From positions 4 through 64,003 of the forward strand of contig PCXC01000039.1 of assembly GCA_002796345.1 (NCBI GenBank): 64,000 nt of DNA, in the 5' to 3' direction. Position 1 is the first letter of the stretch. The number at the start of each line of letters is the position of its first letter. The stretch is from Deltaproteobacteria bacterium CG11_big_fil_rev_8_21_14_0_20_42_23. Its GTDB lineage: Bacteria > UBA10199 > 2-02-FULL-44-16. The notes beneath the pieces were generated by a model. The model was not told where the DNA came from. It saw only the letters and a program-made list of their open reading frames with translations, and ran no database searches. The translations under genes were made by a program, and so were the position numbers. Positions 26,035 to 27,042 of the stretch are shown in pieces.

Positions 26035-27042
26035 ATGCATTTTGCAGAAAAACAACGACATGCTTTTGTGAGTGATTTGATGATGCTTAACGGAGATGAT
26101 GAAGAGCTCTTAAATTATGCGCATCAAGACGAAGCTAAACACATCAAAAATATTTTAGAAACGTACAATCATGAAGATAAAGCAAAAAATGTAGAAGGGG
26201 CCGAAGAGCATTTTTATTCTTCTATTGCAGCAAGTAAATTTTCTGGTCTTGCCGAAATTCATCCTGCCTGGATGCTGGAAAAAATAAAACAGGAACCACC
26301 AAGAATTATAGGCATCATTCTTCGCTATCTTCCATCGCAGCATGTTCGATATATTATTCAAAATCTTTCGGAAGAAATCAGAGCCGAGTTGCCTGATATG
26401 GTGGAAGCTTTTTCGGTTGATAAAAAACTTCTCGAAATTATTCGCCTTCGTTTTGAGCAGCTGTTTCCATCTTTGCATCTTGCTCGTGCGAAAAAAGAGT
26501 TTAGATTTGAAGATTTGTATTCTCTTTCTCACCTAGATCTTGAAACATTATTTATCGACTGGGGCATGCAAGAACTAGCGCTTGCATTGCGACGCGTTTC
26601 AAAACGTGTTCGCCATGTTTTGTTCAATAGACTTCCTCTCAAAGACGCCAAAAAAATTCACGATCGCTTGAAAGGCGAAGAACATTACTCTGAAAAATTG
26701 TATCACGAGGCTTGTCTTACCGTTTTGGAAGTTTCTGGTGACCATGTTGGCTCGAAACAGTTTTTCCTTGAATTGGGAATCGCTGCATTTGCCAGAGCCT
26801 TTTCTAAAGAAGATAAAGAAATCTTTGATTTCCTCAAACTGAAGATAAAGCCTGAATATGCTCATCTCTTAAAACGCTTTTTGAAGCAATCTGTGGAGCG
26901 TCATCATTCTGACGATTTGGAAGAAAGACGCCAGATGATCCTTTTCCGGGTGAGTGCCCTCGCGATAAAACATCAGATAGACCCCTCTTGGAGTGCTTGT
27001 AGGCCACTTTCTGCCAATAATGAACAATCTTTAGCTCTCTAG
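26035..27042 (+). CDS. FliG-like protein (rotor/C-ring FliG middle and C-terminal domain homolog)
   Basis: IHPAWMLEKIKQEPPRIIGIILRYLPSQHVRYIIQNLSEEIRAEL matches the FliG middle-domain EHPQtiAlIL.yL....aa.vLs.Lp.elqaev. LALALRRVSKRVRHVLFNRLPLKDAKKI resembles the FliG C-terminal domain. Confidence 0.5.
   Translation: MHFAEKQRHAFVSDLMMLNGDDEELLNYAHQDEAKHIKNILETYNHEDKAKNVEGAEEHFYSSIAASKFSGLAEIHPAWMLEKIKQEPPRIIGIILRYLPSQHVRYIIQNLSEEIRAELPDMVEAFSVDKKLLEIIRLRFEQLFPSLHLARAKKEFRFEDLYSLSHLDLETLFIDWGMQELALALRRVSKRVRHVLFNRLPLKDAKKIHDRLKGEEHYSEKLYHEACLTVLEVSGDHVGSKQFFLELGIAAFARAFSKEDKEIFDFLKLKIKPEYAHLLKRFLKQSVERHHSDDLEERRQMILFRVSALAIKHQIDPSWSACRPLSANNEQSLAL

Follow-up and report, generated by a model that had tools for sequence, protein, structure and literature searches.

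The Myxococcales type III secretion system of non-flagellar kind (NF-T3SS) was presented as the intermediate between flagellum and injectisome and was stated to lack FliE/FliG (Abby & Rocha 2012, PMC3459982). The T3SS* of Myxococcus xanthus was described with SctD, SctJ, SctI, a single SctQ, SctRSTUV, SctN, SctL, and LcrH-like chaperones, and with neither FliG nor SctK (PMC10433427); FliO in non-flagellar T3SSs of Myxococcota was first reported in 2025 (PMC12248157). The locus compared here with these systems lies in a 64,000-nucleotide stretch of Deltaproteobacteria bacterium CG11_big_fil_rev_8_21_14_0_20_42_23 (contig PCXC01000039.1, positions 4 to 64,003; this whole stretch is called the window), and it carried a gene for a FliG-like protein within a T3SS-type gene cluster of about 17 kb (20975 to 37947, + strand). 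We hold, at a probability of roughly 0.6, that this protein is a diverged, non-motor paralogue of FliG and most likely the membrane-proximal adaptor of a secretin-less, flagellum-derived T3SS apparatus. The literature searched contained no report of a separate FliG homologue within a non-flagellar, SctJ-based T3SS cluster.

An earlier note on this DNA, made from the sequence alone, had stated that injectisomes are not known to use FliG, and three reports qualify that statement: SctK was listed as "FliG (?)", being a long hypothesized counterpart of FliG (PMC4045390); a putative chlamydial SctK was reported in a preprint to be structurally similar to members of two Pfam family groups, FliG and SctK (10.1101/2025.03.14.643159); and the SctJ-like "FliF" of Chlamydiaceae was a fusion with a FliG_M-like domain (PMC4768692). 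The gene under study and its domains were as follows.

26035 to 27042, + strand: FliG-like protein, 335 amino acids (aa), ATG start (open reading frame, Pfam, AlphaFold2 model, Foldseek, family profile)
26035 to 26244, + strand: short FliG_N-like helical head, aa 1–70 (four helices in the predicted model; family alignment by hidden Markov model, HMM; weak assignment)
26245 to 26469, + strand: FliG_M-like ARM domain, aa 71–145 (conserved E87-x-P89-R90, the counterpart of EHPQ; fold match to 4fq0_C)
26482 to 26742, + strand: FliG_C-like domain, aa 150–236 (F-x-F hinge F156/F158; torque-helix equivalent at aa 202–213 without the motor charges; Pfam)
26743 to 27009, + strand: C' domain, aa 237–325 (family-specific internal duplicate of the FliG_C-like four-helix unit; hhalign)

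A Shine-Dalgarno sequence AGGAGA was located 7 nt 5' of the ATG, and the preceding gene ended 8 bp away. The earlier note had recognized a FliG homologue, had quoted its middle-domain motif IHPAWMLEKIKQEPPRIIGIILRYLPSQHVRYIIQNLSEEIRAEL (residues 75–119), and had proposed a profile search against FliG_M, FliG_C, and MgtE_N. The search returned (i) FliG_C with an E-value of 4.8e-9 and 36.9 bits against a cut-off of 23.3 (aa 153–227); (ii) FliG_M with an E-value of 5e-5 and 23.8 bits, just below its cut-off of 25 (aa 80–119); and (iii) MgtE_N weakly, with an E-value of 0.012. Because FliG_C matched and MgtE_N only weakly, the observation of FliG homology was correct. The score against the fliG equivalog model TIGR00207 of NCBIfam was 42.6 bits, far short of its cut-off of 226.7. 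The same profiles were applied to 52 diverse family members (Pfam, E ≤ 1): FliG_C was matched in 49 of them, FliG_M in 47, and MgtE_N in 42, and no member matched any of the SctK families (YscK, OrgA_MxiK, HrpB4).

The AlphaFold2 model, built with 29 homologues, was all-helical with a mean pLDDT of 84. The best 13 matches of this model in the Foldseek comparison with the PDB were all FliG, among them full-length FliG from Salmonella C-ring cryo-EM structures (about 300 aligned columns), and the M domain fitted FliG_M of the Helicobacter pylori FliG–FliM complex (4fq0_C) with a TM-score of 0.78 and a root-mean-square deviation of 2.0 Å; identity to the solved FliGs was about 14–16% in these fold alignments. 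No SctK or MgtE structure was found among the PDB fold matches listed, and the sequence search of the PDB gave weak matches to Thermotoga and Helicobacter FliG only. Judged from profiles and predicted fold together, the protein is a genuine, highly diverged FliG homologue. Two other identities were considered and discarded: MgtE_N or a different helical family, since FliG_C and FliG_M scored better and the top folds were all FliG, and membership in SctK, for which neither profiles (52 members) nor the listed fold matches gave support.

Canonical FliG was aligned with the family HMM in three blocks: family positions 5–61 with FliG residues 2–58 or 11–58 (N), about 66–122 with about 105–162 (M), and 141–239 with 224–322 (C). 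Compared to canonical FliG, about 40 residues were gone at each of the two junctions, N–M and M–C, while about 90 residues were present beyond the C domain. These additional residues were recognized as a second copy of the preceding domain: the sub-alignments 150–236 and 237–325 were matched by hhalign with a probability of 96.6% and an E-value of 6.6e-10 over 64 columns, and C' was full-length in nearly all of the 150 family representatives listed. On these alignments the architecture is read as N(short)-M-C-C', and the middle and C-terminal domains named in the earlier note were thus both present within an incomplete description, which had left out the short FliG_N-like head and the duplicated C-type domain.

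In Escherichia coli FliG, residues K264, R281, D288, D289, and R297 are the torque-helix charges that contact the stator protein MotA. The ten key positions of the E. coli sequence used for the comparison were confirmed in the HMM alignment. In the window protein, the five charge columns contained R186, K203, D210, R211, and S219; no column of the five was conserved across the 52 members, and the D289 column was Arg in 25 of the 52. The most conserved part of the family was instead the FliM-binding EHPQR core, in which E87 (51/52) and P89 (50/52) were near-invariant and R90 was found in 31/52, with S or P in place of H and R in place of Q; the alignment gave no column for R160, and the F-x-F hinge was also retained. 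The LLGG loop of FliM contacts FliG_M, and this loop was kept in the FliM-like protein of the cluster (21 orthologues aligned), while the CheY-binding N-terminal EIDAL-like motif was found in none of these 21. The residue pattern, as read from the alignments, is what one would expect if this FliG had a structural role and neither rotated nor switched. The earlier note had advised a check of the torque-helix charges, with their loss arguing for a structural role; because they were not conserved, a motor role is disfavored and a structural adaptor favored.

A protein identical to that of the window was present in NCBI as a hypothetical protein of the metagenome-assembled genome (MAG) "Deltaproteobacteria bacterium CG_4_10_14_0_2_um_filter", and the homologue search gave 35 homologues with 32–45% identity; a second search with the broad alignment, limited by its word filter, brought little more. 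The family profile, searched against 1.84 billion cluster representatives, had 594 matches with an E-value limit of 1e-3; of these, 245 also passed a limit of 1e-10 and 121 one of 1e-30. Almost all of the matches were 300–380 aa long and aligned from end to end, including C'. The sampled members were all metagenomic, and almost all were labelled "hypothetical protein", with the exception of one Joint Genome Institute (JGI) entry named FliG. Since the profile barely reached canonical FliGs, these proteins are assigned, by profile reach, to a separate and unannotated family rather than to the tail of FliG. There were 35 invariant columns among 29 sequences of about 40% identity.

The cluster scan (one genome per species) returned 22 loci, all from MAGs that bore the labels Bdellovibrio sp., Pseudobdellovibrionaceae, Deltaproteobacteria, Myxococcales, or Pseudomonadota; their G+C contents were 37–65%. 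The same gene order was displayed by 21 of these 22 loci, the remaining one being a weak 36-residue match. Identity to the relatives was very uneven within the one operon: 78–85% for the ATPase, 31–43% for the FliG-like protein, and 21–31% for the FliM-like protein. Among more distant members (about 20% identity), L028 and L029 repeated the cluster, L027 had the order sigma factor, T3SS_needle_F-domain protein, SctJ, FliG-like, FliH, FliH, ATPase, YscO, and FliK, and L026 had SctJ and the FliG-like gene as an adjacent pair with FliH 4 kb off. The similarity and synteny of the FliG-like gene are far beyond chance, given the identical NCBI protein, the 35 homologues, the 594 profile representatives, and the synteny of the cluster across 21 or more further genomes.

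The cluster in the window contained, besides the FliG-like gene, the following features.

20975 to 22565, + strand: cluster head, encoding a protein of 100 aa, a Gly/Ser-rich one of 179 aa whose C-terminal helix is conserved, and an LcrH-sized TPR protein of 149 aa (synteny in at least 15 loci)
22537 to 23517, + strand: SctJ-type inner-membrane ring lipoprotein, 326 aa (Pfam YscJ_FliF, E-value 1.2e-26)
24655 to 25545, + strand: FliA/WhiG-like sigma factor (Pfam Sigma70_r2/r4; TIGR02479 FliA_WhiG 133.6 bits, below the cut-off of 189.6)
25520 to 26026, + strand: 168-aa weakly SctI (inner rod)-like protein, directly upstream of the FliG-like gene (weak orthologue matches)
27088 to 27786, + strand: FliH/SctL stator-like protein, whose actual start is probably ATG 27097 (Pfam FliH, E-value 6.5e-22; T3SS_SCTL, E-value 9e-8)
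27793 to 29160, + strand: T3SS ATPase, FliI/SctN (FliI_clade2 651 bits and SctN 622 bits, both above cut-offs)
29166 to 29684, + strand: SctO/FliJ-type stalk protein (Pfam YscO-like, E-value 7e-25)
29697 to 30494, + strand: FliK/SctP-like protein (Pfam Flg_hook, E-value 1.4e-8)
30507 to 31421, + strand: FliM-like protein, 304 aa (Pfam FliM, E-value 1.8e-11; LLGG kept, CheY-binding motif absent)
31382 to 31894, + strand: FliN/SctQ-C-like SpoA-domain protein (Pfam FliMN_C, E-value 4.7e-21; SpaO_YscQ 88 bits, fliN 68 bits)
31916 to 34307, + strand: export-gate genes FliO, FliP/SctR, FliQ/SctS, and FliR/SctT (Pfam FliO, FliP, Bac_export_3, Bac_export_1)
34503 to 37947, + strand: cluster tail, with 386-aa and 302-aa coiled-coil proteins without family matches, interleaved with two TPR proteins

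The gene order was flagellar (ring-G-H-I-J-K-M-N-O-P-Q-R), with injectisome-type parts at several positions, and the operon was tight around the FliG-like gene, which occupied the fliG position proposed for it: immediately downstream came the genes for FliH/SctL (27088), the ATPase (27793), and the YscO-like protein (29166). The ring gene, 2.5 kb upstream of the FliG-like gene and separated from the sigma factor gene by two small open reading frames, encoded an SctJ-type lipoprotein rather than FliF, in agreement with the earlier note: TIGR02544 SctJ was its best model (125.6 bits, below the equivalog cut-off of 161.95) against 44.6 bits for fliF, and the 326-aa protein had a lipobox LFVSC, a C-terminal transmembrane helix, and a 43-aa cytoplasmic tail. 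Against solved homologues, the ATPase scored 423 bits with a T3SS ATPase, 394 with EscN, and 370 with FliI; the FliP-like protein scored 162 bits with flagellar FliP and 144 with SpaP; and the SctJ-like protein scored 39 bits with MxiJ and 37 with FliF. By these scores the cluster proteins appear intermediate between injectisome and flagellum.

The Pfam scan of the window covered open reading frames that were 100 aa or longer and did not fall inside a bigger one, and among these no gene for a secretin, SctD, rod, hook, filament, or stator (MotA/B) was found; nor was any clear needle or translocon gene found within the 64 kb. Secretin, FliF, rod/hook, and MotAB genes were likewise absent from the relatives' flanks, and no FlhA/B or flagellar structural gene was found in the flanks of about 20 relatives. 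The product of open reading frame 25520 had no Pfam match in the window copy, while its orthologues in L021 and L028 matched the C-terminal end of T3SS_basalb_I below threshold (E-values 0.004 and 0.015), and its comparison by hhalign with PrgJ was not significant. The coiled-coil and TPR proteins of the cluster tail may be candidate substrates and their chaperones. The Gly/Ser/Ala-rich 179-aa protein (21484 to 22023) ended in a strongly conserved helix (...LQLLELQAxMQSNMQxWNTKSNILSADHRARMSMIEKFTARG) that resembled a needle C-terminus by eye; its needle-like reading is a lead only, because the hhalign comparisons with YscF and PrgI were not significant. Searches of the PDB with profiles of both 25520 and 21484 gave nothing meaningful. 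In L017, near-identical small helical genes (about 110–196 aa, "LAEGN...RKRFFQIS.GS.AEV") were inserted in the cluster at L017:6709–7464 and L017:18467–19277, and these look like copies of a repeated gene.

The comparison with known systems was made for both protein and cluster. Like flagellar FliG, the FliG-like protein had homologous M and C domains, probably a homologous N head, the E-x-P core, and the F-x-F hinge, and its gene stood between the ring gene and fliH with FliM and FliN partners in the same operon; unlike flagellar FliG, it displayed the extra C' duplicate, the inter-domain deletions, non-conserved torque charges, and a score below the equivalog cut-off, and it was accompanied by an SctJ-type lipoprotein instead of FliF, with no stator genes nearby. 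It would work like FliG as an adaptor; the features that define the motor protein (torque residues, equivalog score, FliF/Mot context) were lacking. Like SctK (YscK/OrgA/MxiK/HrpB4) of injectisomes, it was encoded before sctL and is proposed to link the inner-membrane rings to the SctQ/FliM–FliN platform, but the profile and fold matches to SctK were not found, and SctK binds the FHA domain of SctD, whereas no SctD was present beside the window cluster. Like the Chlamydiaceae "FliF" (PMC4768692), the locus combined a FliG-type domain with a ring protein that is short and SctJ-like, outside a flagellar setting; the chlamydial protein, however, was one fused polypeptide with an M-like domain only, while two genes, a four-domain FliG-like protein, and a full cytoplasmic T3SS operon were found here. 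The N-terminal domain of MgtE (PF03448) belonged to the same helical superfamily and gave weak matches, but the FliG-like protein contained no CBS or transporter domain.

The cluster shared with injectisomes the SctJ lipoprotein ring. Of the export gate and the ATPase complex, R, S, T, N, L, and O were present, but U and V were found neither in the window nor in the ±10-kb flanks of relatives; secretin SctC and SctD were not found among the window reading frames scanned. With the needle-less T3SS* of Myxococcus it shared the absence of a secretin and of any clear needle or translocon, the presence of SctJ, a weak SctI, SctN, SctL, SctRST, an LcrH-like TPR protein, and FliO, the assignment to a predatory "delta-proteobacterial" lineage, and nearby FHA/sigma-54 regulators; unlike the Myxococcus systems, compared by their published description, it contained, besides the FliG-like gene, FliM and FliN as separate genes together with a FliA-like sigma factor, and no SctD, SctU, or SctV was found at the locus. 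The description of the cluster as injectisome-like in the earlier note therefore held for the SctJ-type ring and did not extend to the separate FliM and FliN, FliO, the FliA-like sigma factor, and the flagellar order, nor to secretin, SctD, SctU/V, needle, and translocon, none of which was found in the 64 kb. Judged by gene content, the cluster resembles an injectisome only in part and stands nearer to the T3SS* of Myxococcus, which has neither secretin nor needle; the description that fits it best is a new form of the needle-less T3SS that is more flagellum-like.

FliG_N is bound by a C-terminal peptide of FliF that lies in the cytoplasm. The FliG-like gene adjoined an SctJ-family gene, or lay within 2.5 kb of one, in all contexts examined; members with about 20% identity stood directly after the SctJ-family gene in L025, L026, L027, L030, and L031, with a 4-bp overlap in L030. 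The SctJ orthologues had a transmembrane helix followed by a tail of 35–45 residues with the motif PA[IL]EGxVxDE..P.RL. FliF itself was described as SctJ and SctD fused together (PMC4768692). Docking on the SctJ tail is the simplest reading of the pair, because the FliF tail binds FliG_N and FliF corresponds to SctJ plus SctD. From the observed homology, architecture, residue conservation, synteny, and SctJ adjacency, we infer the following contacts and ring. The FliG_N-like head would dock onto the cytoplasmic C-terminal tail of the SctJ-type lipoprotein, as FliG_N does on the FliF tail; the FliG_M-like ARM domain would hold the FliM-like protein via the near-invariant E-x-P-(R) surface; the FliM-like and FliN-like proteins would build a C-ring-like sorting platform; and this platform would place FliH/SctL, the ATPase, and SctO beneath the FliOPQR-type export gate. 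The FliG-like protein would form a static adaptor ring and generate no torque, because the stator-contacting charges were gone and no stator genes accompanied the cluster. Of the two roles that the earlier note had offered, a remnant of flagellar ancestry or an adaptor between SctJ and the C-ring, the latter is favored: the lost torque charges speak for it over a motor role, and conservation and synteny speak against a remnant.

Several observations weigh against this adaptor reading: (i) the FliG_N-like head was about 40 residues shorter than the canonical one, and Pfam FliG_N (PF14842) was matched in 13 of the 52 members only, weakly (best E-value 1.9e-4) and in ambiguous registers; (ii) the SctJ tail of the window itself was more acidic and departed from the tail motif of its orthologues; (iii) in one subclade, a protein with a YscD-like FHA domain, a transmembrane helix, and PEGA domains was encoded beside the cluster, and in these relatives the FliG-like protein might actually dock to it, in the manner of SctK; (iv) the SctJ–FliG pair is perhaps not specific to secretion, because a Myxococcota branch paired it with Mla/Lpt genes; and (v) SctU/FlhB and SctV/FlhA are required by any T3SS, and neither FlhA/SctV nor FlhB/SctU was found in the window or in the ±10-kb flanks of the cluster in relatives, so the completeness of the apparatus is not demonstrable.

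The subclade protein bears on the alternative that the FliG-like protein is a strict SctK equivalent: it would then connect the sorting platform not with the SctJ tail but with the FHA domain that an SctD-like protein of the outer inner-membrane ring exposes to the cytoplasm. In L008, L009, L010, L013, L019, and L021 a protein of 690–757 aa with the arrangement FHA/Yop-YscD_cpl, transmembrane helix, PEGA, and TPR was encoded directly upstream of the cluster, the FliG-like gene occupied the sctK position between sctI/sctJ and sctL, and the equation of SctK with FliG had been hypothesized (PMC4045390). The window and most relatives, however, had no such protein beside the cluster, the FHA and PEGA matches of the window being confined to a sigma-54 activator and a kinase; SctK Pfam matches were found in 0 of the 52 members and no SctK structure among the listed PDB fold matches; and the distant members adjoined SctJ-like genes, their listed neighbors including no FHA protein. 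We consider this alternative unlikely. The coordinates of the FHA–PEGA protein, a possible SctD analogue in this subclade, were L019:523–2586, L021:2172–4253, L009:1181–3454, and L008:1217–3394 (it was also present in L010 and L013). It is still less likely that the FliG-like protein is the working rotor of a very divergent flagellum whose rod, hook, filament, stators, and FlhA/B are scattered elsewhere in the genome. FlhA/B must sit elsewhere in any case, the gene order was flagellar with separate FliM and FliN, FliO, a FliA-like sigma factor, and a FliK-like gene, the ATPase exceeded the FliI_clade2 cut-off, and the FliP-like protein scored higher with flagellar FliP than with SpaP; against such a rotor, the ring protein was of SctJ type (326 aa) and matched only positions 44–213 of the fliF model TIGR00206 (about 555 residues), the TIGR00207 score was 42.6 against 226.7 bits with torque charges not conserved and D289 usually Arg, the FliM-like protein had no CheY-binding motif, the stalk protein was YscO-like and accompanied by weak SctI matches and LcrH-sized TPR proteins, and no flagellar axial or stator gene was found in the 64 kb or in the flanks of about 20 relatives.

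The distant Myxococcota branch raises another alternative, namely that the SctJ-like/FliG-like pair is a general module of membrane ring and cytoplasmic adaptor used primarily outside secretion (e.g., in envelope lipid or lipopolysaccharide transport), its presence in a T3SS being secondary. In Myxococcota MAGs (G+C about 68%; L025:5077–12171, L030:8320–13441, and L031:5846–12092), the order MlaE, MlaF, MlaD (513 aa, Helical_needle), SctJ-like, FliG-like, and lipid A acyltransferase was conserved, LptD_N, an ABC ATPase (LptB-like), and RpoN followed in L025 and L030, no T3SS genes were found within ±10 kb of these loci, and the sister branch comprised about 100 clusters. Yet the FliG-like gene of the window clade was co-oriented within a complete cytoplasmic T3SS gene set, including FliM as its expected partner, and the FliM-binding motif was the best conserved part of the protein, while the Myxococcota branch was only about 20% identical and may represent secondary co-option, the ring and adaptor pair there having perhaps been taken over by an envelope lipid transport system; a primarily non-secretory module is accordingly judged very improbable. 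An MlaE-MlaF-MlaD operon was also present in the window itself (45354 to 47763), about 8 kb downstream of and not adjacent to the cluster, and is worth recording given the Mla linkage in Myxococcota. A decaying, functionless remnant of flagellar ancestry can hardly be credited at all, because conservation and synteny were strong: although the FliG-like protein evolved faster than its neighbors (31–43% against 78–85% identity for the ATPase) and had lost the motor residues, its reading frame was intact and full-length in hundreds of lineages with 35 invariant columns, the synteny was strict, the operon was tight with a Shine-Dalgarno sequence, and the model was confident.

Several regulatory genes stood near the cluster. 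Beside it (38151 to 42213, − strand) were genes for a sigma-54 activator that has an FHA domain and for a Ser/Thr kinase of 886 aa that has six PEGA domains, and a second sigma-54 activator, with two FHA domains, was located at 62214 to 63827 (− strand); this looks like kinase-to-FHA signalling and could control the cluster. In four relatives (L009:6841–8211, L010:5391–6761, L013:6291–7691, and L019:6737–8167, − strand), a response regulator of NtrC type that carries a sigma-54 activator domain was encoded on the opposite strand between the SctJ block and the sigma factor gene, where the window has only a 124-aa open reading frame. Elsewhere in the window, a PrkA-DUF444-SpoVR operon was present at 47802 to 52568, and an 1101-aa protein (7084 to 10389, − strand) displayed an acidic repetitive region, weak GH123 glycoside hydrolase domains, and a PARP-like Pfam match that, at 64.6 bits, stayed below its cut-off of 100.

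The accepted scenario of injectisome origin (Abby & Rocha 2012) rested on a single known intermediate, the Myxococcus systems, described as having lost FliG already; on the way from the C-ring to the SctK/SctQ sorting platform, the equation of SctK with FliG still carries a question mark. A conserved and widespread system with an SctJ ring, a recognizable motor-dead FliG, and separate FliM and FliN offers a concrete object for studying this transition, and the family profile can be used to search known T3SS* clusters for overlooked adaptors. A tentative, and on balance doubtful, extension is that the cluster family is a living intermediate between flagellum and injectisome, earlier or more flagellum-like than the "Myxo" systems, in which an SctJ-type ring had replaced FliF while FliG, FliM, FliN, and FliO were kept as a static sorting platform, the pair being co-opted again in Myxococcota by an MCE/Mla–Lpt envelope system. 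If this were so, SctK would descend from FliG, and rotation would have been lost before the FliG-type adaptor. Should this lineage be predatory, as its named relatives are, the system may also matter for contact-dependent lysis of prey.

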